Source of the DNA: Clostridia bacterium
Lineage (GTDB): Bacteria > Bacillota > Clostridia > Oscillospirales > CAG-272
Assembly: GCA_028720145.1 (NCBI GenBank)
Contig: JAQYLJ010000052.1
Location: 1-61,011 of the forward strand
Length of the DNA: 61,011 nt
Direction: 5' to 3'
Shown here: positions 13,669-46,003 of the stretch, piece by piece
How positions within the stretch are numbered: the first letter of the stretch is position 1
How the letters are laid out: every line of letters starts with the position of its first letter
Program-made: the position numbers and the translations under genes
The notes under the pieces: model-generated
Seen by the model: only the letters and a program-made list of their open reading frames with translations
What the model was told of the DNA's origin: nothing
Database searches by the model: none

Positions 13669-13986
13669 ATGGAGAAGAAAATCGACGCGCGCACCGAGAT
13701 GGAACTGCTGTACGGCGTGATGGCGACGCTCGACACCCCCGAGAAGGTGCGAATGTTTCTGTCGGACCTCTGCACCGATAACGAGCGCGAGAATATGGCA
13801 CAGCGAGTGGAGTCCGCCCGTCTGCTCCTCGAAGGGAAGACCTATCAGCAGGTCGCCGCGGCGGTCGAGATTTCCTCCGCGACCCTCAGTCGGGTGAATC
13901 GGTGTATCAAGCACGGAGAGGGCGGATACCGCGATCTTCTCGCCGCGTACCTCGATGGGACGAAACCCGAGGGGACATCCGACTGA
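13669..13986 (+). CDS. YerC/YecD TrpR-related regulator (HisR-like)
   Basis: FLSDLCT..E...MAQR, GKTYQQV, SSATLSRVNRC, GEGGYR; GGAGG RBS. Confidence 0.9.
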   Translation: MEKKIDARTEMELLYGVMATLDTPEKVRMFLSDLCTDNERENMAQRVESARLLLEGKTYQQVAAAVEISSATLSRVNRCIKHGEGGYRDLLAAYLDGTKPEGTSD

Positions 13987-14199: not shown

Positions 14200-14298
14200 C
14201 CGTGCTTGTACTTCTAGCATAAGCACTATCGAAAAATCTGCTCGGCATTTTTGCGTTTTGCACTTGACAGTTTTCTGATTGCCTTATATAATAGTTTC

Positions 14299-14435
14299 AC
14301 ACTTCACTGGTGCTCCGACGAGGAGAGCCTCGGCATTGCGTAGAGGCCACGGGCAGAATCTTAGGTGATTTTAAGAGCTTCGGCTCCGGGTAGACTGCCT
14401 ACCGTCTTGACTTCGGTCGAGACGGTTTTCTTTTT
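14299..14435 (+). ncRNA. Candidate structured small RNA B
   Basis: Perfect TTGACA (14264)-17 bp-TATAAT (14287); two cUUCGg tetraloops; terminator 14401-14435; no credible ORF. Confidence 0.6.
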
Positions 14436-14539
14436 CGCCTATGGGGTCTTGACAAATCTATTGGCTTTTTGTGCCGAATATGCCGGAAGTTCCCCCTTGA
14501 CAAACCCGCATCGTTTGAGTATACTGTTCCTATCTGAAA

Positions 14540-14792
14540 TGCGAAGATGGTATTATGCTAAGGCATCCCCTCTCTTAAGAGACCTGTCGGTCGGTGCGAG
14601 ACAGGAAGAGGCGCCAAGGCAGTCTCGTACCGGAGCAGGGTCCCCGAATCGAGTAAGGGATTCCGGTTTGACCCCGTAATCGGTCATGGCTTGTCTGAGC
14701 CTTGAGTGGTCGCCTAGGGGCGACAATGTCGGGTGGTACCGTGGTTGCTATGCAATCATCCCGCAGAAGTTGTTTTGACTTCTGCGGTTTTT
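14540..14792 (+). promoter_or_regulatory. T-box riboswitch, Leu specifier (CTC)
   Basis: Promoter TTGACA (14497)-17 bp-TATACT (14520); AGAGA and GGTGCGA; specifier gcag-tCTCg-tacc (14624-14626); T-box GGGTGGTACCGTG (14731-14743); terminator 14761-14792. Confidence 0.88.
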
Positions 14793-14826: not shown

Positions 14827-16218
14827 ATGGAAAAGACGGAAATGAAACGGATTCTGGTGTCCGATAGGACCCTCTGCGACGGCGCGGTCATGCGGGAGCA
14901 GGGACTCTCGTTCCGCGAGCGTGCGAATGTCGCCGAGGCGCTGTTCGGGCTTGGGGTGGACGCGGTCGAACTGCCTGAGATCACCCGCCCGCGGGAGGAG
15001 ACGGTCATCAATCGCACGATCAGTCTCGCGGCGGGCGAGGTCATGGTGAAGATTCCCGTAGGTCTTACCGAAGAGTCGGTCACGACCGCCTATGAGAGTG
15101 TCCGTGAGGCGAAACGCCCCTGCCTTCAGGTGGTGTTGCCCGTCTCCACTTTGCAGATGGAGTACCGTTGCCATAAGAAAGCGAGAGGGATGCTGGAGGT
15201 CGCGGAGAGTTTGTTCCGCGCCGCCAAAGCCCGTTGTGAGACGGTCGAACTCGTAGCCGAGGACGCCTCCCGCGCGGACGCGCCGTTCCTTGCGTCCCTC
15301 ATCGAAAAAGCCAAAGCGTGCGGTGTGACCTCGGTCACCCTCTGCGATGATGCGGGAATTTGGCTCCCCTGCGAGGCGAAAGCGGCGGTCAAGGATGCGA
15401 CCGCATCGGGCATTGTAGTCTCGGTCAGACCCTCGTCGAAAATCGGCATGGCGGCGGCTGTCGCCCTCGCCGCTGTCCGCGCGGGTGCCACAGGGGTCGT
15501 GACCACGGTCTCGGGAGACGGGCTCACCTCCGCCGCCTTCTCCGACCTCGTGCGTGCACGCGGAGAAGAAATCGGAGTGTCCTGCGCGCTCCGCGAGACG
15601 GGGATTCACAGCGACCTCGAACGGCTGAAGAGTGGTCTCGACGCGGGTGCCGCGGGCGCGTCCTCGCGTACCGATGCCCGTATCCGCCTGACGGGGGACG
15701 CGACTTTGAGGGAGGTCGCCGCCGCTTGTATCTCCCTCGGCTATGAACTCTCGGATAATGACCTCGGCGAGGTGCATCGCGAGGTACAGCGGGTCGCCGC
15801 AAAGAAAGAGCAGATCGGCACACGCGAACTCGAAGCCATCGTCGCCACCGCCGCCATGCAGGTACCCTCGACCTATCATCTCGAAAGCTATGTCGTCTCG
15901 TCGGGGAATGTCATTTCCGCGATGGCGCAACTCACCCTCACCTATAAAGACCGTACCCTCTCGGGCGTGAGCATGGGAGACGGTCCCATCGATGCCGCGT
16001 TCCGCGCGATTGAGCAGATCGCGGGACACCGCTATGAACTCGACGATTTCCAGATTCAGTCGGTCACGAGCGGAAAGGGCGCGGTCGGCAGCGCACTCGT
16101 CAAACTCCGTCAGGGCGGGAAACTCTATTCCGGACAGGGGATCTCGACCGACATCATCGGCGCGAGCATCCGCGCCTACCTCAACGCGCTGAATAAGATT
16201 ATCTACGAGGAAGCATAA
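14827..16218 (+). CDS. LeuA (2-isopropylmalate synthase)-like protein with degenerate catalytic barrel and intact allosteric domain
   Basis: AEDASRAD and C-terminal GDGPIDAAF / STDIIGASIRAYLNALNK are LeuA-like. DTTLRDG reads DRTLCDG, HCHND reads RPSSK, and GERAGN is absent. Confidence 0.8.
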   Translation: MEKTEMKRILVSDRTLCDGAVMREQGLSFRERANVAEALFGLGVDAVELPEITRPREETVINRTISLAAGEVMVKIPVGLTEESVTTAYESVREAKRPCLQVVLPVSTLQMEYRCHKKARGMLEVAESLFRAAKARCETVELVAEDASRADAPFLASLIEKAKACGVTSVTLCDDAGIWLPCEAKAAVKDATASGIVVSVRPSSKIGMAAAVALAAVRAGATGVVTTVSGDGLTSAAFSDLVRARGEEIGVSCALRETGIHSDLERLKSGLDAGAAGASSRTDARIRLTGDATLREVAAACISLGYELSDNDLGEVHREVQRVAAKKEQIGTRELEAIVATAAMQVPSTYHLESYVVSSGNVISAMAQLTLTYKDRTLSGVSMGDGPIDAAFRAIEQIAGHRYELDDFQIQSVTSGKGAVGSALVKLRQGGKLYSGQGISTDIIGASIRAYLNALNKIIYEEA

Positions 16219-16219
16219 G

Positions 16220-18667
16220 ATGAGACTTTCTTTCTCTTCGGATCAAGTAAATGCGCCCTCTTTCCTGTCGCTCTGCTCGACCGCGGCGGAATACGGCTAT
16301 GAGGGGGTCGAACTCTACGACCTCGCGCAGGTGAGGGAACTGCCGGACGGCCTGTTCGGGGACGACCCCGCAGGCGCGAGACGGAAACTCCGCAACCGTC
16401 GGGTTTCGGCGGTCGCGCTCACCTATCCGCTCCCCGTCGACGATACCGAAGTCTCGCGGGAGGCGGTCGAGGACTATATTGCCGCCGCCACCGAGGCGGG
16501 TATCCCCTATGTCATTGTGCGCGTCGCCGACGGCGTGAAGCCCGAAGTCCTCGCCGCCGCTTTGAGAAATGCCGCACGGACCGCGGCGAAACAGGAGGTG
16601 AAAATCCTCTTCGAGACGGTCGGCGAACTCGCGCATACCGAACGCCTGATTTCCATTCTGCACGCCTTCGCCTGTGACGGGGTCGGGGCGGCGTGGAATA
16701 TCCGCGCCACCTATTTCGAGGGTGGCGAGGGTGCCGAGGATACCATCACCACGCTCGGCGCGTATATCTCCTATGTCCGTCTCGGTGACCGCAAGAACGG
16801 TGCCGACTGCCTCATCGGGGACGGGGAACTCCCTCTCCGCGATTTTGTCAGCGCGCTCCGCTCTCTGAACTATGACGGCTATGCCGCCTGCGATACCGCG
16901 GACATTGAGGATTATGACCTACTCTTCACTCACTATGCCGCCACGTTGCGCCGCCTGACCGAGGGCGAGAAAAAAGCGATTTTGCAGAAGAACCGCTCAG
17001 GGACGGGGACCTTCCCGTGGAAGAAGTATGAAGTCGTGGACAAGACCTTTTCGCAGGTGCTCGACACTATGGTGGAACTCTATCCCGACCAGTACGCGTT
17101 CCGTTACCCCACTTTGGATTATACCCGCACCTACCGCGAGTTCCGCGACGATGTGGACCGTGTCGCGGCGGGGCTGATTTCCCTCGGTGTGAAGCCCGGA
17201 TTCCATGTCGCCATCTGGGCGACCAATGTCCCCGCGTGGTTCCTCACTTTCTGGGCGGCGGTGAAGATAGGCGCGGTGCTCGTCACCGTCAATACCGCGT
17301 ATAAGATTCAGGAGGCGGAATATCTGCTCCGTCAGTCGGACACCCATACCCTCGTGATGATTGAGAACTGTAAGGATTCCGACTATCGCGGCATCATGCA
17401 GGAGCTCTGCCCCGAACTCGCAAACATGGAGCCGGGAGACCCGCTCTATTCCGAGAAACTGCCGTTCCTCCGCCATATCGTCACCGTCGGCTTCTCCATG
17501 CCGGGGGCTCTGACATGGGAGGGACTGCTCGATCGCGCGGACACGGTTCCGCAGGAAGAGGTGCGCCGTCTCGCCGCGGGCGTGAAACCCGACGATGTCG
17601 TGAATATGCAGTACACCTCGGGTACCACGGGCTTCCCGAAAGGGGTCATGCTCACCCATCGGAATATCGTCAATAACGGCAAGATCATCGGCGACCGCAT
17701 GGATCTCTCCACCGCCGACCGCATGATGGTGCAGGTGCCGATGTTCCATTGTTTCGGCATGGTTCTGACCATGACCTCCATCATGACCCACGGCGGCACT
17801 CTCTGTCCGCTCCCGTATTTCTCTCCGAAGTCCTCGCTCGCCTGCGTGACCGAGGAGAAGATCACCTGCTTTAACGGTGTCCCTACTATGTTCATCGCCA
17901 TGTTCGCCCACGAGAATTTCGCCACGACCGATTTCTCGCATGTGCGGACGGGCATCATGGCGGGCTCGAACTGCCCCCCGGACCTCATGCGCCGCGCCGC
18001 GCGGGAGATGAACATGACCGAGATCATCAGCGTCTACGGGCAGACCGAGGCGGCGCCCGGCTGTACCATGGGGGAGGTCACCGAGGACCTCGACCACCGC
18101 GTCGAGACGGTCGGGACGGCTTTCCCGGGCGTGGAGTGTAAAATCATTGACCCCGAGACGGGACTCGACGTGCCCGACGGGCAGAACGGCGAGTTTGTCG
18201 CCCGCGGATTCAATATCATGAAAGGGTATTACAAGATGCCCCGCGCCACCGCCGCCACCATCGATAAGGACGGCTGGCTCCATTCGGGGGACATCTGTTG
18301 CCGCACCGAGGACGGGTATTACCGCGTGACCGGTCGTCTCAAGGACATGATTATCCGCGGCGGGGAGAACCTCTATCCGCGTGAAATCGAGGAGTTCTAT
18401 CTCACCCACCCGAAAGTGCGGGATGTGCAGGTCGTCGGGGTCCCCGATGCCCGCTACGGGGAAGAGGCGTGCGCTTGGATTATCCTCCATGACGGCGAGA
18501 CGGCGGACGAGGAGGAGATGCGCGCATTCGGACGCGCCCATATCGCCACCCATAAGGTGCCGCGGTACTTCGTCTTTGTCGACACCTTCCCGATGAACGC
18601 CGCAGGGAAAATTCAGAAGTATAAGATGCGCGAGATCATGTGCGAAAAGTTGGGTCTCAAACAGTAA
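16220..18667 (+). CDS. Acyl-CoA synthetase with N-terminal xylose-isomerase-like TIM-barrel domain
   Basis: YTSGTTGFPKG, YGQTE, WLHSGD, GRLKDMIIRGGEN, AGKIQK. The first ~250 aa resemble AP-endonuclease-2/sugar-isomerase barrels (YGYEGVEL, IGDGELP, YDGY). Confidence 0.88.
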   Translation: MRLSFSSDQVNAPSFLSLCSTAAEYGYEGVELYDLAQVRELPDGLFGDDPAGARRKLRNRRVSAVALTYPLPVDDTEVSREAVEDYIAAATEAGIPYVIVRVADGVKPEVLAAALRNAARTAAKQEVKILFETVGELAHTERLISILHAFACDGVGAAWNIRATYFEGGEGAEDTITTLGAYISYVRLGDRKNGADCLIGDGELPLRDFVSALRSLNYDGYAACDTADIEDYDLLFTHYAATLRRLTEGEKKAILQKNRSGTGTFPWKKYEVVDKTFSQVLDTMVELYPDQYAFRYPTLDYTRTYREFRDDVDRVAAGLISLGVKPGFHVAIWATNVPAWFLTFWAAVKIGAVLVTVNTAYKIQEAEYLLRQSDTHTLVMIENCKDSDYRGIMQELCPELANMEPGDPLYSEKLPFLRHIVTVGFSMPGALTWEGLLDRADTVPQEEVRRLAAGVKPDDVVNMQYTSGTTGFPKGVMLTHRNIVNNGKIIGDRMDLSTADRMMVQVPMFHCFGMVLTMTSIMTHGGTLCPLPYFSPKSSLACVTEEKITCFNGVPTMFIAMFAHENFATTDFSHVRTGIMAGSNCPPDLMRRAAREMNMTEIISVYGQTEAAPGCTMGEVTEDLDHRVETVGTAFPGVECKIIDPETGLDVPDGQNGEFVARGFNIMKGYYKMPRATAATIDKDGWLHSGDICCRTEDGYYRVTGRLKDMIIRGGENLYPREIEEFYLTHPKVRDVQVVGVPDARYGEEACAWIILHDGETADEEEMRAFGRAHIATHKVPRYFVFVDTFPMNAAGKIQKYKMREIMCEKLGLKQ

Positions 18668-18682
18668 CGAAAAGAAGAGATT

Positions 18683-19492
18683 ATGAGACAGGTTATCGAT
18701 TGCCATTGTCATATTTATCCCGATAAGATCGCCGCGAAGGCGGCGGGGAATACGGGGAAGTTCTACGATATTCCCATGCGGTACGACGGGCGGCTCTCGA
18801 CCATGCTCGAAGCAGGCGAGGCGGCGGGGATCACGCGCTACTTGGTTTTCTCGGTCGCGACCACGCCCGCCCAGACCGCGTCCATCAACCGCTATATCGC
18901 CGACACGGTCGCCGCGTACCCCGACCGTATGCTGGGACTGGGGACCATGCACCCCGATGAGGAGAACCCCGCCGCCGTGGCAGACGAGATTCTCGCTCTG
19001 GGGCTCAGGGGTCTCAAACTCCACCCCGATATTCAGGGGGTCGCGCTTGACGACCCGCGGTGTATGCGGATTTTCGAGGTGTGCGAGGGGCGGCTCCCCG
19101 TGCTCTTGCATACGGGGGATAAACGTTATCGGTATTCCAACCCCGAGGAATTGATCCCAGTTCTGAAAGCATTTCCGCGCCTGACGGTCATCGGCGCGCA
19201 CTTCGGCGGCTATTCGGTCTGGCAGGACGCGGCGGAGAAGCTCGCACCTTACTCCGGACTCTATGTCGACTGTTCCTCTTCGCTCTTTGCCATGACAAAC
19301 GAGGAAGGGAGACGGTTGGTGCGTCTTTGGGGCGCGGAGCGGGTGCTCTTCGGCACCGACTATCCCATGTGGGACCCCACCGAGGAACTCGCGCGTTTTG
19401 ATGCGATGGAACTTTCCGAGCGGGAGAGCGCGCTGATTCTCCATGAGAACGCCGAGCGCCTCTTCGGGTTCCCGCCTTGCGAGAACGCATAA
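18683..19492 (+). CDS. Amidohydrolase_2-family metal-dependent hydrolase
   Basis: IDCHCH, LKLHP, LHTGD, AHFGG, FGTDYP. Confidence 0.88.
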   Translation: MRQVIDCHCHIYPDKIAAKAAGNTGKFYDIPMRYDGRLSTMLEAGEAAGITRYLVFSVATTPAQTASINRYIADTVAAYPDRMLGLGTMHPDEENPAAVADEILALGLRGLKLHPDIQGVALDDPRCMRIFEVCEGRLPVLLHTGDKRYRYSNPEELIPVLKAFPRLTVIGAHFGGYSVWQDAAEKLAPYSGLYVDCSSSLFAMTNEEGRRLVRLWGAERVLFGTDYPMWDPTEELARFDAMELSERESALILHENAERLFGFPPCENA

Positions 19493-19554
19493 AAAAATCA
19501 CCGAAACGGCTTGACAAATTCCGAAAAGCATGGTATTCTTATCCCATCCAGAAA

Positions 19555-19813
19555 GACTATGACGAAGCCGGAAGTTGAACCGGACCCCAGAGAGTCGGCG
19601 GTTGGTGCGAGCCGATGCGACGGTTTGACAGTTTCCTATCCCTTCCGAGTCGGAGTGCCCAAAACGAGTGTGAGTAGGTGTTCCCGTGATGCCGCGTGAG
19701 TGCACAGGACTTGATGGAGTCCGATGAGGGCACGGTTTTATCCGTGAATTTGAGTGGTACCGCGGGTTATTTGACTCGTCTCAAAGTGTTTTGAGACGAG
19801 TCTTTTTGTTTTT
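19555..19813 (+). promoter_or_regulatory. T-box riboswitch, Ile specifier (ATC)
   Basis: Promoter TTGACA (19511)-17 bp-TATTCT; AGAGA and GGTGCGA; specifier ttcc-tATCc-cttc (19638-19640); T-box AATTTGAGTGGTACCGCG (19747-19764); terminator 19773-19813. Confidence 0.9.
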
Positions 19814-19839: not shown

Positions 19840-22107
19840 ATGCAGGAAACCCCCATGACACAGATAAGCGAAATCGCCGCCCGTATCCGCGGGATGCGCG
19901 AGATTCTCGGCTGGACACAGGGCGAGATGGCGGTGAAGACCGAGGTGAGCGAGGCGGATTACGGTGTCTACGAGAGCGGTAAGACCGACCTCCCGTTTAC
20001 CTTCATCCACAAGTGCGCGCTCGCGTTCGGGATGGAACTCACCGAGCTGCTCGAAGGACGGGTGCCGAACCTCTCGTCCTATACCGTCACCCGCCGCGGA
20101 GAGGGAGAACAGACCGCGAAAGAGGCAGGGATTCTCATTCGGAACCTCGCGCCCAAATTTCGCTCGAAGATAGCAGAACCCTACTGGGTGCGGTATGAGT
20201 ATTCGGAAGAGCTCCAAAATCGCCCGATTCATCTGACGCGTCACTCGGGGCAGGAGTTCGACCTCATTCTGCGCGGGAAACTCAAAGTACAGGTCGGCGA
20301 GCATACCGAGGTTCTCTCCGAGGGCGACAGCATCTACTACAACAGTTCGACCCCGCACGGCATGATTGCCGTGGACGGCGAGGACTGCGTGTTCTGCGCG
20401 GTCGTGCTCCCGGGGTCGGATGAGGAGAACACCGAGGACACCAAACTCACGGCGGCGGCGACCACCCCCGACGAGGACCTCGTGGTCGATAAGTTCGTCG
20501 AGACCAAGGTCGACGCGCAGGGCGTGCTCACCGAAGTGAAGTTCAAGAACACCGAACATTTCAACTTCGGGTTCGATATCGTGGACGCCATCGCCGAGAA
20601 GTCTCCCGACCGCCTCGCGATGCTCCACCTCGACTGCCATAAGACCGAGCGGCGGTTCACCTACCGCGACCTCCGCCGCGCGTCCAACCGCTGCGTCAAC
20701 TATTTCCGTTCGCTCGGCATCTCCCGCGGCGATAAGGTCATGCTGGTCCTCAAACGCCACCATCAGTTCTGGTTCTCGATGATTGCGCTCCATAAGCTGG
20801 GGGCTATCGCGATTCCCGCGACCTCACAGCTCAAAGAGCATGACTACGCATACCGCTTCGAGGCGGCGGGCGTGGATGCCATCATCGCCACTTCGGACGA
20901 CGGCGTGCCCGAGACCGTGGAGGCCGCGGCGAAAGCGGGGAACGCACCCGAGATCCGCGTCCTCGTCGGCGGGAAACGCGCGGGCTGGCACGACTTCGAT
21001 GCCGAATACCCGCTCTTTTCGAGCCACTACGAGCGCCCCGCGGACGCGCCCGGCGGCGACGAGACCGCCCTCATGTTCTTCACTTCGGGCACGACGGGGA
21101 ACGCCAAGATGGCGGCGCATAAGCACACCTACGGGCTCGGGCATTTCGTCACCGCGAAATACTGGCACTGTTGTGAGAAAGACGGGCTCCACTTCACCAT
21201 CTCCGATACCGGCTGGGGGAAATCCCTCTGGGGCAAGCTCTACGGGCAGTTCATGTGTGAGGGCGCGGTGTTCGTCTACGACTTCAACCGCTTCTCCGCG
21301 TCTGATTTGCTCCCGCTCTTTGCGCAGTACCATATCACCACTTTCTGCGCGCCGCCCACCATGCTCCGCATGATGATTAAAGAGGATCTCTCGGCATACG
21401 ATTTCTCTTCGGTCAAGCACATGACCACCGCGGGTGAGGCACTCAACCCCGAGGTGCAGAAACAGTTTCTCGCCGCGACCGGGCTCACCATCATGGAGGG
21501 CTTCGGACAGACCGAGACCACCCTCACCATCGCGAACCTCGCGGGCGTACAGCCCAAACTCGGCTCGATGGGGAAAGCGTCTCCCCAGTACCCCATCGTC
21601 CTCGTCGACCCGGACGGCAAGCCGGTCGGGAACGGGGAAGTGGGCGAAATCTGTGTCGACCTCTCGAACGGCGCACCAGTCGGACTCTTCTCGGGGTATT
21701 ACCGCGACTCCGAAAAGACGGCGGAGGTCATTCGCGGAGGTCTCTATCACACGGGCGATACCGCGTGGCGGGATGAGGACGGCTATTTCTACTATGTCAG
21801 CCGCGTGGACGATGTCATCAAGTCCTCGGGCTACCGCATCGGACCCTTCGAGATTGAGAGCGTGATTATGGAACTCCCCTACGTCCTCGAATGCGGGGTT
21901 TCCGCCGCGCCCGACGAGGTGCGCGGACAGGTGGTAAAGGCGAGCATCGTCTTAACCCAAGGCACCGAGCCGACAGAAGAGCTCAAAAAAGAGATTCAGG
22001 AGTATGTCAAGAGCCATACCGCACCCTATAAGTACCCCCGCATCGTGGTCTTCCGCAAGGAACTCCCCAAGACGGTCAGCGGGAAAATCCAAAGAAATCT
22101 ACTGTAA
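19840..22107 (+). CDS. XRE-HTH + cupin + medium-chain acyl-CoA synthetase fusion, copy 1
   Basis: HTH (IRGMREILGWTQGEMA), cupin (HSGQEFD, EGDSIYYNSSTPHG), FTSGTTGNAK, DTGWGK, GFGQTET, SSGYRIGPFEIE, PKTVSGK. Confidence 0.92.
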   Translation: MQETPMTQISEIAARIRGMREILGWTQGEMAVKTEVSEADYGVYESGKTDLPFTFIHKCALAFGMELTELLEGRVPNLSSYTVTRRGEGEQTAKEAGILIRNLAPKFRSKIAEPYWVRYEYSEELQNRPIHLTRHSGQEFDLILRGKLKVQVGEHTEVLSEGDSIYYNSSTPHGMIAVDGEDCVFCAVVLPGSDEENTEDTKLTAAATTPDEDLVVDKFVETKVDAQGVLTEVKFKNTEHFNFGFDIVDAIAEKSPDRLAMLHLDCHKTERRFTYRDLRRASNRCVNYFRSLGISRGDKVMLVLKRHHQFWFSMIALHKLGAIAIPATSQLKEHDYAYRFEAAGVDAIIATSDDGVPETVEAAAKAGNAPEIRVLVGGKRAGWHDFDAEYPLFSSHYERPADAPGGDETALMFFTSGTTGNAKMAAHKHTYGLGHFVTAKYWHCCEKDGLHFTISDTGWGKSLWGKLYGQFMCEGAVFVYDFNRFSASDLLPLFAQYHITTFCAPPTMLRMMIKEDLSAYDFSSVKHMTTAGEALNPEVQKQFLAATGLTIMEGFGQTETTLTIANLAGVQPKLGSMGKASPQYPIVLVDPDGKPVGNGEVGEICVDLSNGAPVGLFSGYYRDSEKTAEVIRGGLYHTGDTAWRDEDGYFYYVSRVDDVIKSSGYRIGPFEIESVIMELPYVLECGVSAAPDEVRGQVVKASIVLTQGTEPTEELKKEIQEYVKSHTAPYKYPRIVVFRKELPKTVSGKIQRNLL

Positions 22108-22160
22108 AAACACTTGACACAATTTGCGAAGTATGATAGGATAATACCAAATTTATTAAA

Positions 22161-22420
22161 GGCGATGAAGAAAAGGGCGTTTGTTTTGCTTCTTCAGAGA
22201 CATGGCGGTCGGTGCGAGCCATGGGGGCGGTCAAATGTTTGTAGTTTCCGAGCCGAGAGGAAGAAAGGGAGACCGAGTAGACCCTCTCCGTCACTTGCCG
22301 CGTCAGTGCATAGGACTTGTCAGAGTCCGATAAGGGCACGGAGTTTTCCGTGAATTTGAGTGGTACCGCGGGTTTTACGACTCGTCTCAAAGTCATACTT
22401 TGGGGCGGGTCTTTCTGTTT
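22161..22420 (+). promoter_or_regulatory. T-box riboswitch, Val specifier (GTA)
   Basis: TTGACA at 22114; AGAGA and GGTGCGA; specifier atgtt-tGTAg-tttc (22241-22243); T-box AATTTGAGTGGTACCGCG (22353-22370); terminator 22379-22420. Confidence 0.9.
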
Positions 22421-22438
22421 CCCGCCGAAGGAGAATTT

Positions 22439-24733
22439 ATGCAGAAAACACGGGATTTGGAAGTAAAGATTCTCGAAATGGCGCAGAGAATCCGTGCGCT
22501 GCGCGAGATCGTCGGACTGTCGAGTGCGGAAATGGCGGAAAAGACCGATGTCGAAGAGGAAGAATACCTCGCCTGCGAGGCGGGGAAAGAGGACTTAAAC
22601 TTCGCATTCCTCTACCGCTGCGCACAGGCGCTCGGGGTCGATGTCACCGATATCATCGAGGGGACGGGGCCCCGCCTGTCCTCGTATACCGTCACGAGAC
22701 GGGGAGAGGGACAGAAAATCGAACAGGCGCACGGCATGGTGTACTATAACCTCGCCGCCGCGTTCAAGAACCGTATCGCGGAGCCGCTGTATGTCTGTTC
22801 CGCCTATTCCGAGGAAGCGACAGGCAAGGACATTCCCCTGACCACCCACCTCGGGCAGGAGTGCGATATCATCGTCAAAGGTGTACTCAAAGTGCAGGTC
22901 GGCGACCATATCGAGATTCTGCGCGCGGGCGACAGCATTTACTATGACAGTTCGACCCCGCACGGCATGATTGCCCTCGAAGGGGCGGACTGCTGGTTCT
23001 ACGCCATCGTCCTGAACCCGACGGGGGAACCCATGTCCACCCTGACCCACAGCGGGGTGCGCGAGTTCATCACCCTGCCGCCGAAGTTCACGCCCAAGCA
23101 CCGCTTCGTTTGGGAGGACTTCATCGTGGCGGAAGAGGACGAGACGGGCGCACTCAAAAAACTGACCTTCAAAAATCAGGAGAAATTCAACTTCGCATTC
23201 GATGTCATCGACCGTCTCGGCACCGAGCAGGCGGGGAAACTCGCGATGCTCCATCTCGACAGAAACAAAACCGAGCGCCGTTTCACGTTCGGAGACCTCA
23301 AACGCGCGTCGGCGCAGGCGGCGAACTATTTCCGCTCGCTCGGAATCAAACGGGGTGATCGGGTGCTTCTCATTCTCAAACGGCATTACCAGTTCTGGAT
23401 TGCCATTTTGGGGCTGATGAAACTCGGGGCGATTGCCATCCCCGCGCCCAACCAGTTGCGCGAGCACGATATTTCCTACCGTCTGAACCGCGCCGAGATT
23501 AAGGCGATTCTCTGTACCGCGGACGGCGATGTCTCGGGCGAGGTGGACGCGGCTGCCGCGTCGGCACCCTGTCTCGAAACAAAAATCATGGTGGACGGGC
23601 ACCGCGACGGCTGGCATGACTTCGATGCTGAATACCCGCTCTTTACCGGCAAATTCGAGCGCACCGAGGACACCCCCTGCGGCGAGGATATTATGCTCAT
23701 GTACTTCACCTCGGGCACCTCGGGGAATCCGAAAATCGCCGTACATAACTACGAATACCCGCTCGGGCATTTCCACACCGCGAAATATTGGCATTGCGTC
23801 GACCCCGACGGACTCCATTTCACCGTGTCGGACACGGGATGGGCGAAAGCCGCGTGGGGGAAAATCTTCGGACAATGGCTCTGTGAGGCGGCGATCTTCG
23901 TCTACGACTTCGACCGCTTTGACGCGGCGGATATTCTCCCCATGTTCGCGAAATACCACATCACCACTTTCTGTGCGCCGCCCACCATCCTCCGCATGAT
24001 GGTGAAGCAGGATATCGGGAAATACGACCTCTCGTCGGTCACCCACATGACGACCGCGGGCGAGGCGCTGAACCCCGAGGTCTTCCGCCAGTTCGAGGCG
24101 GCGACGGGGCTCACCATCATGGAGGGCTTCGGACAGACCGAGACCACCTGCGCCATCGCCAATCTGGTCGGCACCCGTGCGCGTCTCGGCTCGATGGGGA
24201 AACCCGTGCCGCTCTACCATATAGAACTATTGAATCCGGCGGGAGAACCCGTGCCGGACGGCGAAGTCGGAGAAATCTGTATCGATGTCTCAAACGGTGC
24301 GCCCTGCGGACTTTTCCGCGGCTACTACCGCGACGAGGAAAAGACGGCGGAGTGCTGGCACGACGGGTACTACCACACGGGCGATACCGCGTGGCGTGAC
24401 GAGGACGGCTACTTCTGGTATGTCGGACGCATCGACGACCTCATCAAGTCCTCGGGCTATCGCATTGGACCCTTCGAGATTGAGAATGTCATAATGGAAC
24501 TCCCGTATGTCCTCGAATGCGGGGTCTCCGCCGCACCCGACGAGGTGCGCGGACAGGTGGTGAAGGCGAGTATCGTCCTCACCCCGGGGACCGAACCGAC
24601 AGAAGAACTCAAAAAAGAGATTCAGGAGTATGTCAAGGCGCGTACCGCCCCGTATAAGTACCCGCGTATCGTGGTGTTCAAGGACGAACTGCCCAAGACC
24701 ACGAGCGGTAAGATTCAGAGAAATCAACTGTGA
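22439..24733 (+). CDS. XRE-HTH + cupin + medium-chain acyl-CoA synthetase fusion, copy 2
   Basis: Same architecture as copy 1; FTSGTSGNPK, DTGWAK, GFGQTET, PKTTSGK; AAGGAG RBS before ATG 22439. Confidence 0.92.
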   Translation: MQKTRDLEVKILEMAQRIRALREIVGLSSAEMAEKTDVEEEEYLACEAGKEDLNFAFLYRCAQALGVDVTDIIEGTGPRLSSYTVTRRGEGQKIEQAHGMVYYNLAAAFKNRIAEPLYVCSAYSEEATGKDIPLTTHLGQECDIIVKGVLKVQVGDHIEILRAGDSIYYDSSTPHGMIALEGADCWFYAIVLNPTGEPMSTLTHSGVREFITLPPKFTPKHRFVWEDFIVAEEDETGALKKLTFKNQEKFNFAFDVIDRLGTEQAGKLAMLHLDRNKTERRFTFGDLKRASAQAANYFRSLGIKRGDRVLLILKRHYQFWIAILGLMKLGAIAIPAPNQLREHDISYRLNRAEIKAILCTADGDVSGEVDAAAASAPCLETKIMVDGHRDGWHDFDAEYPLFTGKFERTEDTPCGEDIMLMYFTSGTSGNPKIAVHNYEYPLGHFHTAKYWHCVDPDGLHFTVSDTGWAKAAWGKIFGQWLCEAAIFVYDFDRFDAADILPMFAKYHITTFCAPPTILRMMVKQDIGKYDLSSVTHMTTAGEALNPEVFRQFEAATGLTIMEGFGQTETTCAIANLVGTRARLGSMGKPVPLYHIELLNPAGEPVPDGEVGEICIDVSNGAPCGLFRGYYRDEEKTAECWHDGYYHTGDTAWRDEDGYFWYVGRIDDLIKSSGYRIGPFEIENVIMELPYVLECGVSAAPDEVRGQVVKASIVLTPGTEPTEELKKEIQEYVKARTAPYKYPRIVVFKDELPKTTSGKIQRNQL

Positions 24734-24744: not shown

Positions 24745-25821
24745 ATGATGGAAATTCAATTCACGCCGACCGCGACCCCGAAAGAAAAGCCGAAAGACGA
24801 GAGCAAACTCGGCTTCGGGAAGATTTTTACCGACTATATGTTCGTCATGGACTACTCCGCCGATAAGGGGTGGCATGACGCCCGCATTATCCCTTACGGA
24901 CCCCTTGCTCTGAATCCCGCCTCTTCGGTGCTTCACTATGGGACCGAGATTTTCGAGGGGCTGAAAGCCTACCGCACGAGCGACGGTGAAATCCGTCTGT
25001 TCCGCCCGTGGGAGAACATTCGCCGCATGAATAACAGTGCCGAGCGTCTGTGTCTGCCCGAGGTGGACGAGGAATTTGTCCTCTCGGCGTTCGACCGCCT
25101 CGTCACGCTCGAAAAGGACTGGGTGCCGCACGAAGAGGGGACCTCGCTGTACCTGCGCCCGTTCATGTACGGGAACGACCCGCACCTCGGCGTGCACGCG
25201 GTGCATGACGCGACCTTCGTCATCATCTGCTCTCCCGTCGGCGCGTATTACGCCGAGGGCATCAACCCCGTGAAGATTATCATTGAAGATAAAGATGTCC
25301 GCGCCGTCCGCGGCGGTACGGGGTACGCCAAGTGCGGCGGTAACTACGCCGCCAGTCTCCGCGCAGGGAAGAAAGCAGAAGAAAAGGGCTATACGCAGGT
25401 TCTTTGGCTCGATGGCGTGGAGCGGAAGTACATCGAGGAAGTCGGGTCGATGAATGTCATGTTCAAGATCGACGGCACCATCGTCACCCCCGCGCTCCTC
25501 GGCTCGGTGCTCCCGGGCATCACCCGGAAATCCTGTATCGAACTTCTGAAATCTTGGGGCTACAAGGTCGAAGAGAGACAGCTCTCGGTCGATGAACTGG
25601 TTGCCGCCATCAAGGACGGGAAACTCGAAGAGGCATGGGGCACGGGGACTGCCGCCGTGGTGTCTCCCATCGGGACCCTCTGCTATGAAAATGTCGAGTA
25701 TACCGTGAACGGGAGTAAAATCGGCGAGATTACCCAGCGGCTCTATGACGAACTCACCGGGATTCAATGGGGCAGACAGCCCGACCCGTTCTCTTGGTGC
25801 CATACGGTCTGCCGCGCATGA
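24745..25821 (+). CDS. ilvE: Branched-chain amino acid aminotransferase
   Basis: LGFGKIFTD, LHYG..IFEGLKAY, LYLRPF, AKCGGNYA, EEVGSMN, LPGITR, GTGTAAV. Confidence 0.96.
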   Translation: MMEIQFTPTATPKEKPKDESKLGFGKIFTDYMFVMDYSADKGWHDARIIPYGPLALNPASSVLHYGTEIFEGLKAYRTSDGEIRLFRPWENIRRMNNSAERLCLPEVDEEFVLSAFDRLVTLEKDWVPHEEGTSLYLRPFMYGNDPHLGVHAVHDATFVIICSPVGAYYAEGINPVKIIIEDKDVRAVRGGTGYAKCGGNYAASLRAGKKAEEKGYTQVLWLDGVERKYIEEVGSMNVMFKIDGTIVTPALLGSVLPGITRKSCIELLKSWGYKVEERQLSVDELVAAIKDGKLEEAWGTGTAAVVSPIGTLCYENVEYTVNGSKIGEITQRLYDELTGIQWGRQPDPFSWCHTVCRA

Positions 25822-26723: not shown

Positions 26724-27785
26724 ATGGCTGATAAAGTACTTATGAAAGGCAACGAGGCGATTGCGGAAGCGGCGATTCGCGCGGGTTGCCGTCACTACTT
26801 CGGATACCCCATCACCCCCCAGACCGAGGTGGCGGCGTATATGGCGAAGCGGATGCCGAAAATCGGCGGCGTGTTCCTCCAGGCGGAGAGCGAGATTTCC
26901 GCCATCAATATGGTGTACGGGGTCGCGAGCGCGGGTATGCGCGTCATGACCTCTTCGTCCAGTCCCGGGATTTCTTTGAAACAGGAGGGGATTTCCTACC
27001 TCGCGGGCGCAGACCTGCCCGCGCTCATTGTCAATGTCCAGCGCGGCGGACCCGGGCTCGGCGGGATTCAGCCCTCCCAGTCCGACTATTTCCAGGCGAC
27101 CAAGGGCGGCGGGCACGGCGACTATCATCTGATTGTCCTCGCCCCTGCGTCGGTGCAGGAAATGGCGGATATGACGGGGAAGGCGTTTGACCTCGCGGAC
27201 GAATATCGGATGCCCGTCATGCTGCTCGCGGACGGGACGATGGGACAGATGATGGAGCCGGTCACCCTGCCCGAGACGGCACCCCGCACGGTCGAGAAAC
27301 CGTGGGCGGTCACAGGTACGCAAGGGAAGCGGGAACACAATATCATCAACTCGCTGTACCTGAAACCCGAGATTCTCGAACGCACCAACCTTGAACGCTA
27401 TGACCGCTATCGGGTCATCGAAGAGAAAGAGCCGCTGTGGGAGGAATACCTCACCGAGGACGCGGATATTTGCGTGGTCGCGTTCGGCATCGCAGCCCGC
27501 GTGTCCAAGAACGCGGTGAAAGCCGCCCGCGCAAAGGGCATCAAAGCGGGTCTCATTCGTCCCATCACCCTTTGGCCGTTCCCGAAGGCACCGCTCGCGA
27601 AAGCCGCCGAGCACGCAAAGGCGTTTCTCTCGGTCGAACTCTCGATGGGGCAGATGATCGAGGATATCGAACTCGCGATTCGTTGCCGTCGTCCGGTCAC
27701 GCTCTGTAACCGTACCGGCGGTATGATTCCCACGCCCGAGGAAGTCCTCGCGGCGATTGAAAAAGCGGCGGGAGGAGAGAACTGA
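26724..27785 (+). CDS. vorB: 3-methyl-2-oxobutanoate:ferredoxin oxidoreductase alpha-type subunit
   Basis: MKGNEAIAE, YFGYPITPQ, QAESE, TSSSSPG, QRGGPGLG, ATKGGGHGD. Confidence 0.88.
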   Translation: MADKVLMKGNEAIAEAAIRAGCRHYFGYPITPQTEVAAYMAKRMPKIGGVFLQAESEISAINMVYGVASAGMRVMTSSSSPGISLKQEGISYLAGADLPALIVNVQRGGPGLGGIQPSQSDYFQATKGGGHGDYHLIVLAPASVQEMADMTGKAFDLADEYRMPVMLLADGTMGQMMEPVTLPETAPRTVEKPWAVTGTQGKREHNIINSLYLKPEILERTNLERYDRYRVIEEKEPLWEEYLTEDADICVVAFGIAARVSKNAVKAARAKGIKAGLIRPITLWPFPKAPLAKAAEHAKAFLSVELSMGQMIEDIELAIRCRRPVTLCNRTGGMIPTPEEVLAAIEKAAGGEN

Positions 27786-28537
27786 TGATTATTTTTGAGA
27801 AACCGAAATCCCTCGCGGATGTTCCGCTTCACTATTGCCCGGGCTGTACCCACGGGATTATCCATCGTCTTGTCGCAGAGGCGATCGACGACCTCGGGAT
27901 TGAGGGGAAGACCGTCGGCGTTGCTCCCGTCGGATGCGCCGTCATGGCATACGACTACTTCACCTGCGATATGGTCGAGGCGGCACACGGCAGAGCGCCA
28001 GCCGTCGCGACGGGCTTAAAACGCGCGATGCCCGAGAATATCATCTTCACCTATCAGGGGGACGGCGACCTCGCCTCCATCGGGATGGCGGAGACGGTGC
28101 ACGCCGCGACGAGAAACGAGAATATCACGATTATCTTCGTCAATAACGCGATTTACGGCATGACGGGCGGGCAGATGGCGCCCACCTCGCTCCCGGGACA
28201 GGTCACGCAGACCTCGCCTTACGGGCGGGATGTGCAGACGGTCGGCTACCCCATCCGCGTCTCCGAGATGCTCGCCGCACTCGACGGACCCTACTATATC
28301 GAGCGGGTCGCCGTCAACAGCGTGAAGCACGTCCGCGACGCGAAGAAAGCCATTCGCCACGCGTTCGAGAATCAGGTGGCGGGAAAGGGCTTCTCCCTCA
28401 TCGAGGTGGTGTCCTCCTGCCCGACGAACTGGGGCATGACCCCCGAGAAGGCGCTCGCGTGGGTGGACGAGAAGATGATTCCGTACTATCCGCTCGGCGT
28501 GTATAAAGACAAAGATAAGGAGGCGGGAGAAGCATGA
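27785..28537 (+). CDS. TPP-binding beta subunit of 2-oxoacid:ferredoxin oxidoreductase
   Basis: YCPGCTHG, HGRA, QGDGD, NNAIYGMTGGQMAPT, SCPTNW. Confidence 0.92.
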   Translation: MIIFEKPKSLADVPLHYCPGCTHGIIHRLVAEAIDDLGIEGKTVGVAPVGCAVMAYDYFTCDMVEAAHGRAPAVATGLKRAMPENIIFTYQGDGDLASIGMAETVHAATRNENITIIFVNNAIYGMTGGQMAPTSLPGQVTQTSPYGRDVQTVGYPIRVSEMLAALDGPYYIERVAVNSVKHVRDAKKAIRHAFENQVAGKGFSLIEVVSSCPTNWGMTPEKALAWVDEKMIPYYPLGVYKDKDKEAGEA

Positions 28538-44700: not shown

Positions 44701-44950
44701 TCGGTGAGAGAACCTTTTGGAAATGTAATCGATGTCATTCCCTTTGGTTCATCTTGTGAGTATTCCTCAAAAACAACTCGCGCCCGACCTCCGCATGGCG
44801 GCTCCCGAAGGAGTACCTACACGCGGGAAGTCAGGCGCGATTTTTATCCTAGCCGATTGCAGGGGGGCACAGGCGAACTTCATAATAGGCGTTTTCAAGC
44901 ACAAGTTTTCGCACGCAAATAGCCAAAAGGCATTCTCACACGTGGTTTTG

Positions 44951-45718
44951 TTACAGGGACGACAGCACCGAGCGGAGATACGCCGTCGGGGTGAGTCCCG
45001 TCTCTTTGCGGAACGCCGCATCGAAGTAGTAGACACTTCCGAACCCCGCCCGCTCGGCGATCTCCGCGATGGAGTATTCGCCTGTGAGGAGCAGTTCTTT
45101 GGCGCGGTTCAGTTTCAGGGTTTGTATGTACTTCGCGGGAGAGACCGAATAGAGACCGACGAAGAGTTTACGGAAATAGGAGGTGCTGACCCCCGAGAGC
45201 GCGGCGAGGGTGTCGTTGTCGGTTTCCCCGTCCGCGAAATGCGCTTCGATGTATTGGAGCGCAGGGCGCAGAATTGCCGCCTTGCTCCCGGGGAAATAGG
45301 TATCCTCGCTCACGGTCATGAGATGGAGCAATTTGTAGAATTTGCTCATCACCTCGTATTCGTACCCCGGGCGCTTGTAGGCGAGGATGCGCTCCATCTC
45401 CGAGAGGAGTTCGAGGAGGGGCGCGGAAGCCGAAATCTTACAGGATACGACCTCTGTCGGGAGCGGCTCCGCCGTCTCAAAGTCAATCATGCAGCACTCG
45501 CCCCGCTCGGCGAAATCAATCTCATAGGACGAGTTTTTCGGGAGCAATACACAGGTTTTCGGCGCCGAAATCACTTGTCTGTCCCCTTGTGTATAGACGG
45601 TTTTTCCCGCCAACTTAAAGGTGAGGGAATTGGTGATTCTTTTGTCCCGTCTGTCTTTTTTGAGAGCCACATTCGGGCGGTACACCGCCCGCACCCTCGT
45701 GGGTACAAATTGAAACAT
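44951..45718 (-). CDS. AraC-family transcriptional regulator
   Basis: STSYFRKLF, IAERAGFGSVYYF..AFRKETGLTP. Confidence 0.9.
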   Translation of the reverse strand: MFQFVPTRVRAVYRPNVALKKDRRDKRITNSLTFKLAGKTVYTQGDRQVISAPKTCVLLPKNSSYEIDFAERGECCMIDFETAEPLPTEVVSCKISASAPLLELLSEMERILAYKRPGYEYEVMSKFYKLLHLMTVSEDTYFPGSKAAILRPALQYIEAHFADGETDNDTLAALSGVSTSYFRKLFVGLYSVSPAKYIQTLKLNRAKELLLTGEYSIAEIAERAGFGSVYYFDAAFRKETGLTPTAYLRSVLSSL

Positions 45719-46003
45719 GGAGAACCCTCCGTTTCATGTATTTGATACTAGTCTAACCGATTTTTTGTGCTTTGTAAAGTACCATAATTCAGTTTTCTGC
45801 TTTGCGGGAAATCAAACAAAACACTTTTTTGGATTTTTGTTAAGTACTTGCCGAATTTTTGCAAGAACCAGTACGCTGCTTTCGTCTCACAAAACTCTTG
45901 TATTGATTGCAAAATCCACGGAGAATATTCCGTATCACGGAAACTGATTTCATATGAAAAAGCACTTGCAGACGCAAGTGCTTTTTTGAGAAAATGAAAT
46001 GTA

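Follow-up and report, generated by a model that had tools for sequence, protein, structure and literature searches.

The window analyzed here, a stretch of 61,011 nucleotides from a Clostridia bacterium, contains a gene that resembles leuA, follows a leucine T-box leader, and ends directly upstream of a gene encoding an acyl-CoA ligase. Its product has lost the substrate arginine and both metal histidines of isopropylmalate synthase (IPMS), which raises the question of what such a LeuA is kept for.

The LeuA-like protein and its catalytic motifs

The open reading frame runs from an ATG at 14827 to a TAA at 16216-16218 and encodes 463 amino acids with no internal stop. A ribosome site, AAGGGG, precedes the start by 7 nt, and the start codon of most relatives falls at the position of Met6 of this protein. 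The ligase ATG at 16220 follows the stop after a single nucleotide, so the intact frame and close junction described in the original prediction hold (Table 1). Pfam places an HMGL-like domain (PF00682) at residues 11 to 232 (E value of 7.6e-24) and the LeuA_dimer domain near the C terminus (E value of 9.9e-30).

Table 1. Features of the LeuA-like locus, with positions in the window
Feature	Position	Strand	Basis
Sigma-70-like promoter (TTGACA, 17 nt spacer, TATACT)	14497..14525	+	11/12 consensus matches; consensus match only
T-box leader, specifier CUC (Leu), UGGU bulge	14535..14766	+	RF00230, full-length
Intrinsic T-box terminator, 12-bp stem then TTTTTGTATT	14761..14787	+	Overlaps T-box 3' end
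LeuA-like pseudoenzyme (P0001), 463 aa	14827..16218	+	ORF, Pfam, NCBIfam, alignments, AlphaFold2
Degenerate DRE-TIM (HMGL-like) barrel, residues 8-235	14848..15531	+	Family-wide motif loss, pairwise identity
LeuA_dimer (PF08502) regulatory domain, residues 332-458	15820..16200	+	Pfam, identity, GDGPIDA loop
Family-specific near-invariant segment, residues 340-351	15844..15879	+	135 relatives versus 8 canonical LeuAs
TIM-barrel::acyl-CoA ligase fusion, 815 aa	16220..18667	+	Pfam, NCBIfam
Amidohydro_2 protein, 269 aa, last gene of the operon	18683..19492	+	E 2e-40
Second T-box, specifier AUC (Ile, tentative)	19550..19786	+	86.2 bits, E 3.2e-18
HTH + cupin + acyl-CoA synthetase fusion (MbcS-like), 755 aa	19840..22107	+	Pfam, NCBIfam
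Third T-box, specifier GUA (Val)	22156..22392	+	88.6 bits, E 7.5e-19
Second HTH + cupin + acyl-CoA synthetase fusion, 777 aa	22400..24733	+	Domain content
Branched-chain amino acid aminotransferase (BCAT)	24745..25821	+	NF009897, 488.6 bits, cutoff 307
2-Oxoacid:ferredoxin oxidoreductase (VorB 26724..27785; TPP-binding beta subunit 27785..28537)	26724..28537	+	NF005507, Pfam

We compared the motifs by residue-by-residue alignment with the solved LeuAs 6e1j, 3eeg, and 3rmj. DTTLRDGEQ has become DRTLCDGAV, in which Cys stands for the substrate Arg and Ala-Val for Glu-Gln; (s)aHcHNDLG has become svRpSsKIG, in which both metal His residues are gone (HxH to RxS); and GIGERaGN has become SGDGLTSA. 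The alignments therefore agree with the altered DRE motif, replaced HxH, and absent GERAGN noted earlier. In place of the catalytic set of IPMS (Arg-Asp, His-x-His, and GERAGN) stand C-D, R-x-S, and SGDGLTSA, and the DRE-TIM metallolyase signature with its metal site is absent while the fold is kept. Still present in the window copy are D18, the metal Asp, and E145, the Glu of EDA; neither is conserved family-wide. A table in a review (PMC10464499) lists the changes R80A, R80K, and E218A of Mycobacterium tuberculosis IPMS as abolishing activity. The protein misses the equivalog cutoffs of NF002086 (234.2 bits versus 532) and TIGR00973 (196.2 bits versus 598.7); the NCBIfam LeuA models cover residues 288 to 461, and the citramalate synthase models match the N-terminal part only.

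The AlphaFold2 model has a mean pLDDT of 89.7. Its nearest folds are methylthioalkylmalate synthase (MAM) and LeuA, including the leucine-bound 3fig, and it also matches the DRE-TIM folds 1nvm, 4jn6, and 4lrs. To judge by its sequence, the regulatory domain is of the LeuA type. When this domain was searched in isolation against solved structures, only 3f6g was returned, as a weak match (E value of 0.27), and a search of solved structures with the profile of the LeuA-like alignment (A1) matched catalytic domains only. A PF08502 domain excised from CimA is described in PMC13381585 as an autonomous amino acid sensor.

Conservation and selection across the family

None of 135 LeuA-like relatives keeps the R-D-H-H set, which all eight canonical LeuAs have, and a His at either HxH position occurs in a single relative. 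The Thr of DTxG, which we take to be the keto acid binder of LeuA, is replaced by Asp in 121 of the 135. Positions 17, 18, 145, 201, and 203 are variable or replaced over all members, and the old active-site positions (17 to 21, 145, 201, 205, and 230 to 234) vary freely in the family. Judged from this family-wide loss of the catalytic set, the window protein is not an isopropylmalate synthase, as had been predicted.

The conservation pattern of the family is the inverse of that of canonical LeuA. Pairwise identity is 0.64 in the regulatory domain and 0.38 in the barrel of the LeuA-like proteins versus 0.46 and 0.59, respectively, in canonical LeuA. The C-terminal allosteric domain, already pointed out as well conserved, is in fact the best-conserved part of the protein. 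It shares the GDGPIDA loop (GDGP at residues 384 to 387) with canonical LeuA, and its segment 340-351, near-invariant in the 135 relatives and variable in the eight canonical LeuAs, sits in a dip of model confidence (pLDDT of 63 for block 341-350). In the barrel, a 63-row alignment of LeuA-like proteins has 16 invariant positions, and the invariant polar residues include D13, E57, S107, E112, Y113, H116, K118, D146, R149, and D174. The barrel is still constrained, which a pure sensor might not need; this observation counts against the sensor reading.

The gene is under purifying selection and is not decaying, which answers the check for neutral decay proposed with the original prediction. An unbroken reading frame is present in 39 of 40 family genomes and in 58 genomes of the class, and near-identical contigs from other samples differ from the window at 17 codons of the gene, 14 of them silently. 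We used this codon count in place of a formal per-domain dN/dS because the relatives with DNA available are 37 to 51% identical and their silent sites are saturated. Across the class, 59 of 300 sampled genomes carry a LeuA-like gene. Within the family sample, 1 of the 40 genomes with the LeuA-like gene also has canonical LeuA, as do 22 of the 61 without the LeuA-like gene; these genome counts, like those below, come from related genomes and hence are not independent.

The ligase, its leader, and the surrounding genes

The ligase fusion consists of AP_endonuc_2 (residues 21 to 227), AMP-binding (285 to 671), and AMP-binding_C (722 to 797) domains and is 51 to 70% identical in all 20 neighboring loci. 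Searches gave 987 relatives of the ligase and more than 120 clusters of LeuA-like proteins, with hundreds of genome pairs between them. The LeuA-like gene lies directly 5' of it in 20/20 fetched loci, 40/40 family genomes, and 57/57 assessable class genomes, an arrangement that is far beyond chance and recurs in dozens of genomes. About 47 of the 300 class genomes have the ligase without the LeuA-like gene. That the ligase is often alone, while in the genomes assessed the LeuA-like gene is always next to the ligase, is the pattern expected of an accessory subunit. Five sampled genomes carry the ligase with neither LeuA nor the LeuA-like protein, and since a clade of ligases works without it, the partner would be dispensable for ligase activity, a point against the subunit reading. 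The stand-alone ligases form one clade (SH-aLRT of 100) and require one change in the tree, in which gain and loss of the partner look alike because the tree is rooted through a very long outgroup branch.

The barrel of the ligase has lost a putative metal motif in the subclade of the window protein, and its pairwise identity is 0.38 versus 0.63 in stand-alone ligases. The idea that this barrel serves solely as a dock for the LeuA-like protein is weakened, because stand-alone ligases keep the barrel and conserve it better. A weak search for LeuA-like::ligase fusions among longer proteins found none, the sole match being an unrelated protein with HMGL-like and aconitase domains. Complex prediction with the full ligase and LeuA-like residues 288 to 463, run without the barrel, the dimer, or controls, gave a score of 0.00, which counts neither way. 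Contigs of the RNA library X1 match 15104..15381, 15462..15655, 16535..16812, and 17760..17910 at 97 to 100% identity; these matches, contigs only with shares of 0.05 to 0.15, mean presence in the library rather than transcription, and the gaps between them are uninformative.

The predicted Leu T-box is present in the leader, where it matches the whole RF00230 model at 84.4 bits (E value of 1.2e-18) with specifier CUC, starting 10 nt after the sigma-70-like promoter ends. Rfam sets the gathering score of this model at 93, so the default scan missed it. The two further T-boxes of the window behave alike: with scores of 84 to 89 bits, all three come up with E-value thresholds and are lost at gathering thresholds. 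Of the complete orthologous leaders, 9 of 16 exceed the gathering score. CUC is the specifier in all 17 aligned leaders before the LeuA-like/ligase pair, the bulge is GGGUGGUACCG in the window and in 15 of the 16 relatives' leaders and AGAGUGGUACCG in locus L052, and the genome encodes tRNA-Leu(GAG). A CUC T-box also precedes the stand-alone ligase in 8/8 leaders, and none was found within the 4 kb around canonical leuA in 8/8 loci of relatives. The Leu T-box belongs to the ligase; its inheritance from canonical leuA, considered as a candidate origin, is unsupported.

Among the loci of 20 relatives, 6 have the amidohydrolase gene directly 3' of the ligase, and 1 more has it 5' of the pair. Downstream, the AUC call of the second T-box is tentative, being our reading of an unusually long specifier loop. 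The 755-amino-acid fusion that follows reaches 423 bits with the MbcS model NF047394 (cutoff of 850), and for the third T-box the genome encodes tRNA-Val(UAC). VorB scores 560 bits with NF005507 (cutoff of 399), and the oxidoreductase has the Pfam domains POR_N, PFOR_II, and TPP_enzyme_C.

Proposed function and comparison with known systems

It has been known since the 1960s that anaerobes of the rumen and gut make leucine from isovalerate (PMC7356843, citing Allison 1962 and 1966). The reading that we favor, and to which we give about an even chance, is that the LeuA-like protein is a dead IPMS descendant kept as an accessory subunit that senses leucine and belongs to a ligase activating isovalerate. 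A dead active site, a kept domain of the leucine-binding type, adjacency to the ligase, and the Leu T-box together make it a probable leucine sensor; the acyl-CoA sensor originally offered as an alternative gained no specific support. Uncharged tRNA-Leu(GAG) would let the CUC T-box be read past its terminator, so that the LeuA-like protein, ligase, and amidohydrolase are made together. The ligase would convert isovalerate to isovaleryl-CoA, the VorB-type oxidoreductase of the locus would carboxylate this reductively to 2-ketoisocaproate, and the neighboring aminotransferase would yield leucine. Leucine bound to the LeuA-like regulatory domain would then throttle the ligase, and the salvage route would thereby come under end-product feedback, as the classical route does through LeuA. 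We infer the ligase substrate, leucine binding, ligase contact, and direction of regulation from anatomy and context, isovalerate being the substrate that the context suggests. More tentatively, and somewhat short of an even chance, the LeuA feedback module may have moved to the replacement pathway after loss of the isopropylmalate route and become the leucine-sensing allosteric subunit of isovalerate-CoA ligase.

A structural role without sensing is unlikely, though the best of the alternatives. The protein would be a scaffold or channeling adaptor for the ligase, perhaps together with the oxidoreductase, that passes on isovaleryl-CoA, and its regulatory domain would only dimerize or dock. 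The two genes are strictly adjacent and closely coupled, which would fit, as would the retained barrel with its invariant polar residues, the placement of segment 340-351 in a low-confidence linker like many docking motifs, and the channeling complexes that other DRE-TIM proteins (1nvm, 4jn6, and 4lrs) form with CoA-dependent partners. However, the GDGPIDA loop and the rest of the regulatory domain are better conserved than in working LeuAs, which docking alone explains poorly. No partner of this kind accompanies the Val and Ile ligases of the locus, and the CUC-led ligase itself stands alone in many genomes.

Somewhat less probable again is a barrel remodeled for a new ligand or a metal-independent reaction, for example, to bind or process an acyl-CoA or a leucine-route keto acid, which would make the protein an enzyme or carrier and not a pseudoenzyme. 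Residues that are near-invariant in the family and different in canonical LeuA, namely, D175 (121/135), S203 (110/135), Q110, H116, K118, and H261, would suit this, and so would a frame intact in every genus sampled. Yet the freely varying old active-site positions are the opposite of a conserved catalytic site, and the barrel is the least conserved folded part. We know of no DRE-TIM reaction that runs without metal.

It is improbable that the protein senses leucine for another target, such as the oxidoreductase, aminotransferase, amidohydrolase, or leader RNA. The conserved regulatory domain would be equally in place, and the VorAB and BCAT genes adjoin the pair in several relatives, but BCAT, Vor, and the amidohydrolase come and go, and the ligase is the only invariant neighbor.

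That the protein still works as an isopropylmalate or citramalate synthase, through an unusual active site, is very hard to reconcile with the data, even though D18, E145, and the subdomain I GIH are retained in the window copy, which is the sole LeuA_dimer protein of its genome. The Arg and the metal His pair are gone and their positions vary in the family. In the 97.8% complete genome we found no canonical leuA or second LeuA_dimer protein and no match to KARI_C (ilvC) or ILVD (ilvD) to supply ketoisovalerate. Isopropylmalate isomerase and dehydrogenase (leuBCD) were not found in the genome either: the sole aconitase-family gene is an aconitate hydratase (971 bits versus a cutoff of 612), which clusters with the sole Iso_dh (isocitrate-dehydrogenase-like) gene and a canonical DRE-TIM synthase. 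Least credible of all is a decaying, functionless leuA remnant, since, although the active site and the other pathway genes are lost, frames are intact over many families of the class, most variant codons are silent, and the regulatory domain is more conserved than in working LeuA.

The locus gives candidate genes for the whole isovalerate-to-leucine route, comprising three T-box-controlled ligases, VorB, and BCAT, and the LeuA-like protein is a clean natural case of an enzyme reduced to its allosteric domain. In the library of papers searched, we found no bacterial isovalerate-CoA ligase and no paper on a LeuA pseudoenzyme or a LeuA-like/ligase pair. If the leucine-sensing role is true, feedback control can pass from a lost pathway to its substitute, and the protein offers a natural leucine-binding module for biosensor work; the transfer of feedback would define a new class of pseudoenzyme regulator. 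In the isovalerate-carboxylation route, known from labeling studies, the ligase would be the first committed, ATP-consuming step, which would put a name to an activation gene that has long been missing, and the Leu, Ile, and Val T-box-controlled ligases would form one salvage regulon.

Bacterial short-form LeuA/IPMS (NF002086 and TIGR00973; 3rmj, 3eeg, and 3ewb, with full-length 1sr9 and 3fig) has the same fold and the same domain order of DRE-TIM barrel, accessory subdomains, and PF08502 regulatory domain, with a shared GDGP(I/V)DA loop. Its substrate Arg, metal Asp, and His-x-His are what the LeuA-like family has lost, and the latter differs further in falling below all equivalog cutoffs, lacking leuBCD, inverting the conservation pattern, and being always paired with the ligase. 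Like the LeuA-like protein, MAM derives from IPMS by losing one of its two functions, and MAM (6e1j) is the top fold and sequence match of the LeuA-like protein. It is the mirror image of this protein, having kept catalysis and lost the regulatory domain.

The leader shares its CUC specifier, UGGU bulge, and terminator with the Leu T-box leaders (RF00230) of leuS and ilv-leu operons in Firmicutes, although it scores just under the Rfam gathering cutoff. Unlike those, it controls a dead LeuA and a CoA ligase, with no recognized gene for leucine biosynthesis, charging, or transport. IlvH/IlvN, the acetohydroxyacid synthase small subunit with a valine-binding ACT domain, is likewise a separate noncatalytic feedback subunit of a branched-chain pathway enzyme, and amino-acid-binding regulatory domains act as autonomous sensors according to PMC13381585. 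IlvH/IlvN has an ACT fold and no relic catalytic barrel, whereas the LeuA-like protein has PF08502 and a relic barrel.

HisZ, an inactive histidyl-tRNA synthetase paralogue, is the histidine-sensing subunit of the short-form ATP phosphoribosyltransferase HisG. The logic would be alike, in that a dead paralogue of an amino-acid-recognizing enzyme is reused as the end-product sensor of a first committed step, and the LeuA-like family has lost catalysis with the effector-binding part under selection. The two families are unrelated, and complex formation and regulation are proven for HisZ and inferred for the LeuA-like protein. A further contrast lies in the donor enzyme, which for the LeuA-like protein comes from the very pathway that the salvage route replaces.

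Loss of the LeuA active site across a protein family

The LeuA-like gene is open from an ATG at 14827 to a TAA at 16216-16218 (463 residues, no internal stop), and its stop and the ligase ATG at 16220 lie a single base apart, as the original prediction had it. The structure model of the protein has a mean pLDDT of 89.7, and its closest folds are MAM synthase and LeuA, leucine-bound 3fig among them. Together with the two Pfam domains (see the table), this places the protein structurally within the LeuA lineage. All NCBIfam LeuA equivalogs score far under their cut-offs, the top one reaching 234 bits versus 532. An altered DRE motif, a replaced metal-binding HxH, and a missing GERAGN had been predicted, and residue-by-residue alignment to the solved LeuA barrels 6e1j, 3eeg, and 3rmj confirmed each of them: the protein has DRTLCDGAV instead of DTTLRDGEQ, RPSSKIG at the HxHNDLG metal motif, and SGDGLTSA at the GIGERAGN site.

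Features of the locus and of the LeuA-like protein (identities are mean pairwise values)
Feature	Position	Evidence or remark
YerC/YecD-type TrpR-related gene	13669..13986	TIGR02531, 69 bits vs cut-off 42
Sigma-70 promoter	14264..14292	TTGACA, 17 nt, TATAAT; perfect consensus (12/12)
Terminator hairpin, 11 bp, with T run	14401..14426	~110 nt past the preceding promoter
Promoter TTGACA-17-TATACT	14497..14525	consensus match, upstream of T-box
T-box leader, specifier CUC (Leu), UGGU bulge	14535..14766	Rfam model, full length, 84.4 bits, E 1.2e-18
Terminator, 12 bp	14761..14787	downstream of UGGU bulge
LeuA-like gene	14827..16218 (+)	463 aa
HMGL-like barrel	residues 11-232	Pfam, E 7.6e-24
LeuA allosteric domain	residues 332-458	Pfam, E 9.9e-30
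Barrel, compared region	residues 8-235	identity: LeuA-like 0.38, canonical LeuA 0.59
Linker subdomains	residues 236-331	identity: LeuA-like 0.31, canonical LeuA 0.50
Regulatory domain	residues 332-458	identity: LeuA-like 0.64, canonical LeuA 0.46
Ligase	16220..18667 (+)	815 aa
Ligase barrel	16220..17014	
Amidohydro_2 gene	18683..19492	last in Leu operon; N-terminal HxH intact (DCHCH)
Second T-box, specifier AUC (Ile, tentative: long loop)	19550..19786	86.2 bits, under Rfam gathering score
HTH-cupin-acyl-CoA synthetase fusion	19840..22107	behind second T-box
Third T-box, specifier GUA (Val)	22156..22392	88.6 bits, under Rfam gathering score
Second HTH-cupin-acyl-CoA synthetase fusion	22400..24733	behind third T-box
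Branched-chain aminotransferase		downstream of second fusion; over NCBIfam cut-off
VorB and TPP-binding beta subunit of 2-oxoacid:ferredoxin oxidoreductase		downstream in window; VorB over cut-off

A protein search returned at least 120 clusters, each with both domains, mostly of 451-464 aa and ~50% identical; those that a source names are labelled either 'hypothetical' or 'alpha-isopropylmalate synthase regulatory domain-containing protein'. We aligned 135 members, namely the window protein, 20 from relatives' genomes, and 114 clusters out of 120 listed (the six outside 440-470 aa were left out, and some rows are possibly duplicates), and used eight canonical LeuAs of the same taxonomic family for comparison. 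Arg-Asp and His-x-His occur together in none of the 135 versus all eight canonical proteins. At the Arg position, 54 members have K, 40 have R, 17 have C, and the rest have something else; the metal Asp is kept by 9 members only, the others having V, N, Q, S, A, or further residues. In place of the first His stand Q, C, K, R, or others, and 110 members have Ser for the second; most have L, A, or V where EDA has its catalytic Glu, and 121 have Asp where DTxG has its Thr. D18 and E145 are retained in the window's copy, not across the family. In M. tuberculosis isopropylmalate synthase, R80 and E218 substitutions abolish activity, according to a table in a review (PMC10464499). The alignment indicates that active-site loss is a trait of the whole family.

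The LeuA-like gene is the sole LeuA_dimer match in the window's genome (1.9 Mb, 97.8% complete), in which no KARI_C or ILVD match was found either. Its single aconitase scores over the cut-off as aconitate hydratase and lies in one cluster (contig C5, ~43500..47800; L002, L017, L018) with the only Iso_dh gene (isocitrate dehydrogenase-like) and a canonical DRE-TIM synthase. This synthase has 474 aa, no regulatory domain, and the motifs DTTFRDGQQ, HGHND, and GIGERTGN. The cluster resembles a branch to 2-oxoglutarate of the Re-citrate-synthase type and not a leucine pathway. As this genome yielded no classical pathway for branched-chain amino acids, the organism probably relies on branched-chain fatty acids or amino acid uptake. 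Among the 101 genomes sampled from the family, where counts are descriptive only because the genomes are related, the LeuA-like gene is present in 40, canonical LeuA only in 22, and neither in 39; the two are near-exclusive, with both in one genome (G046). Since the protein fails the catalytic, score, and pathway criteria for LeuA, it should not be filed as an isopropylmalate synthase, in line with the original prediction.

Conservation of the regulatory domain

Identities were compared between 21 LeuA-like proteins, roughly one for each genus, and the eight canonical LeuAs. Conservation is inverted relative to canonical LeuA on this measure, and the constrained part of the LeuA-like protein is the regulatory domain, which had been described as well conserved. 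Its GDGP(I/V)DA loop and C-terminal GxGxSTDI...NALNK block are common to canonical LeuA, and we take the GDGP loop to belong to the leucine site of LeuA. The segment A340-H351 (AxxAMQVPSTYH) is near-invariant in the LeuA-like family and variable in canonical LeuA; it falls in a confidence dip of the otherwise good model.

Of the 40 family genomes, 39 have an unbroken match, the exception (G079) being spread over two contigs with one TGA. Near full-query matches were found in 57 of 58 class genomes, with one (G398) truncated by a contig end. Although three class-genome matches contain a TAA, the corresponding open frames still reach 457-465 aa, so the TAA is located at one end of the match. Against near-identical contigs of other samples, 17 codons of the LeuA-like gene differ, 14 silently and three not (K134T, A324G, and Q329K); in the ligase, 16 of 17 codon changes are silent. 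Intact frames and mostly silent variants rule against neutral decay.

The ligase, its leader, and the neighboring genes

The ligase consists of a TIM barrel resembling xylose isomerase (AP_endonuc_2) in fusion with an AMP-forming acyl-CoA ligase, with PRK12583 as its top NCBIfam match (680 bits versus a cut-off of 832). A full-length homologue, 51-70% identical, directly follows the LeuA-like gene in all 20 fetched loci, in which the LeuA-like gene itself is 37-49% identical (tblastn). When coordinates from searches with both proteins were compared, the LeuA-like gene adjoined the ligase in 40/40 family-sample and 57/58 class-sample genomes, G269 stopping at a contig edge. The fusion is present in 106 of 300 class genomes versus 59 for the LeuA-like gene. 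This distribution indicates that the LeuA-like protein is an optional yet tightly linked addition to the ligase.

The predicted leucine T-box upstream of the LeuA-like gene was recovered; it lies under the Rfam gathering score (84.4 versus 93) and hence was missed there. The genome has a tRNA-Leu(GAG). A complete T-box precedes the pair in 16 of 20 relatives, and one more is cut by the edge of the examined region; the other three have BCAT or Vor genes upstream instead. Each of the 17 leaders aligned, that of the window among them, has CUC as its specifier. No T-box was found near canonical leuA in the loci of 8 relatives. Ten ligases from the family that stand alone form one clade (SH-aLRT 100), and eight of them have a T-box directly in front, each with CUC; the leucine switch is therefore a feature of the ligase.

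Barrels of the stand-alone ligases (L068-L077) have a conserved xylose-isomerase-like set, LIETNG, WDxHH, HxHIKD, and SLEW, where the window's subclade has WNIRxTYF, YVRLGD, and variable residues. In this subclade the putative metal site of the ligase barrel is therefore gone as well. Pairwise identity of the N-terminal barrel is 0.63 among stand-alone versus 0.38 among partnered ligases.

Just before the T-box promoter, a sigma-70 promoter and a terminator enclose a region (14264..14426) with no Rfam match and a fold z-score of -2.0, possibly a small RNA or leader. The TrpR-related gene just upstream of the locus is oriented divergently to metA and to an O-acetylhomoserine sulfhydrylase-like gene.

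Among 20 relatives, the Amidohydro_2 gene directly follows the ligase in six and precedes the pair in one more; it has no obvious role in an isovalerate-to-leucine route. The window thus holds three ligases, one each behind a Leu, an Ile (tentative), and a Val T-box. Carboxylation routes from isovalerate, isobutyrate, and 2-methylbutyrate are known (Allison 1962 and 1966, as cited in passages of PMC7356843). The predicted functions of three ligases, a reversible ketoacid oxidoreductase, and an aminotransferase are what those routes need. The two HTH-cupin fusions are paralogous, with an XRE-type HTH and a cupin on an MbcS-like short-chain acyl-CoA synthetase, and such a pair also occurs in relatives' loci L021, L022, L023, and L037; they might combine ligase activity with binding of DNA or a small ligand.

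Proposed role and comparison with known systems

The most economical reading, which we hold to be about evenly poised between right and wrong, is that the LeuA-like protein is a leucine-sensing subunit of the ligase. The ligase would be the leucine arm of a salvage regulon, activating isovalerate, and the dead LeuA would provide the leucine-binding allosteric module that the ligase is missing. Flux would be doubly controlled, as in the classical pathway, by the T-box through tRNA charging and by the LeuA-like protein through free leucine. Passages of two papers describe a PF08502 domain cut from CimA as an autonomous, specific amino-acid sensor (PMC13381585) and leucine as rigidifying isopropylmalate synthase's accessory and regulatory domains (PMC9860122).

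The sensor-subunit model has weak points. A whole clade of ligases manages without the partner, and a weak search among longer proteins found no fusion of the LeuA-like protein to the ligase. Invariant polar residues, not obviously needed by a pure sensor, persist in the LeuA-like barrel. A non-sensing scaffold is unlikely, and we consider a barrel remodelled for ligand binding or catalysis quite unlikely; action on a target other than the ligase is improbable. A working synthase and a dead relic are both close to excluded, the former by the 0/135 count for Arg-Asp with His-x-His and the latter by the intact frames and 14/17 silent variant codons.

A literature search covering few subscription journals found neither a paper on a LeuA pseudoenzyme nor a bacterial isovalerate-CoA ligase. 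HisZ, the histidine sensor of HisG and itself a dead paralogue of a synthetase, would be the closest functional analogue of the LeuA-like protein, of which MAM synthase is the evolutionary mirror image.
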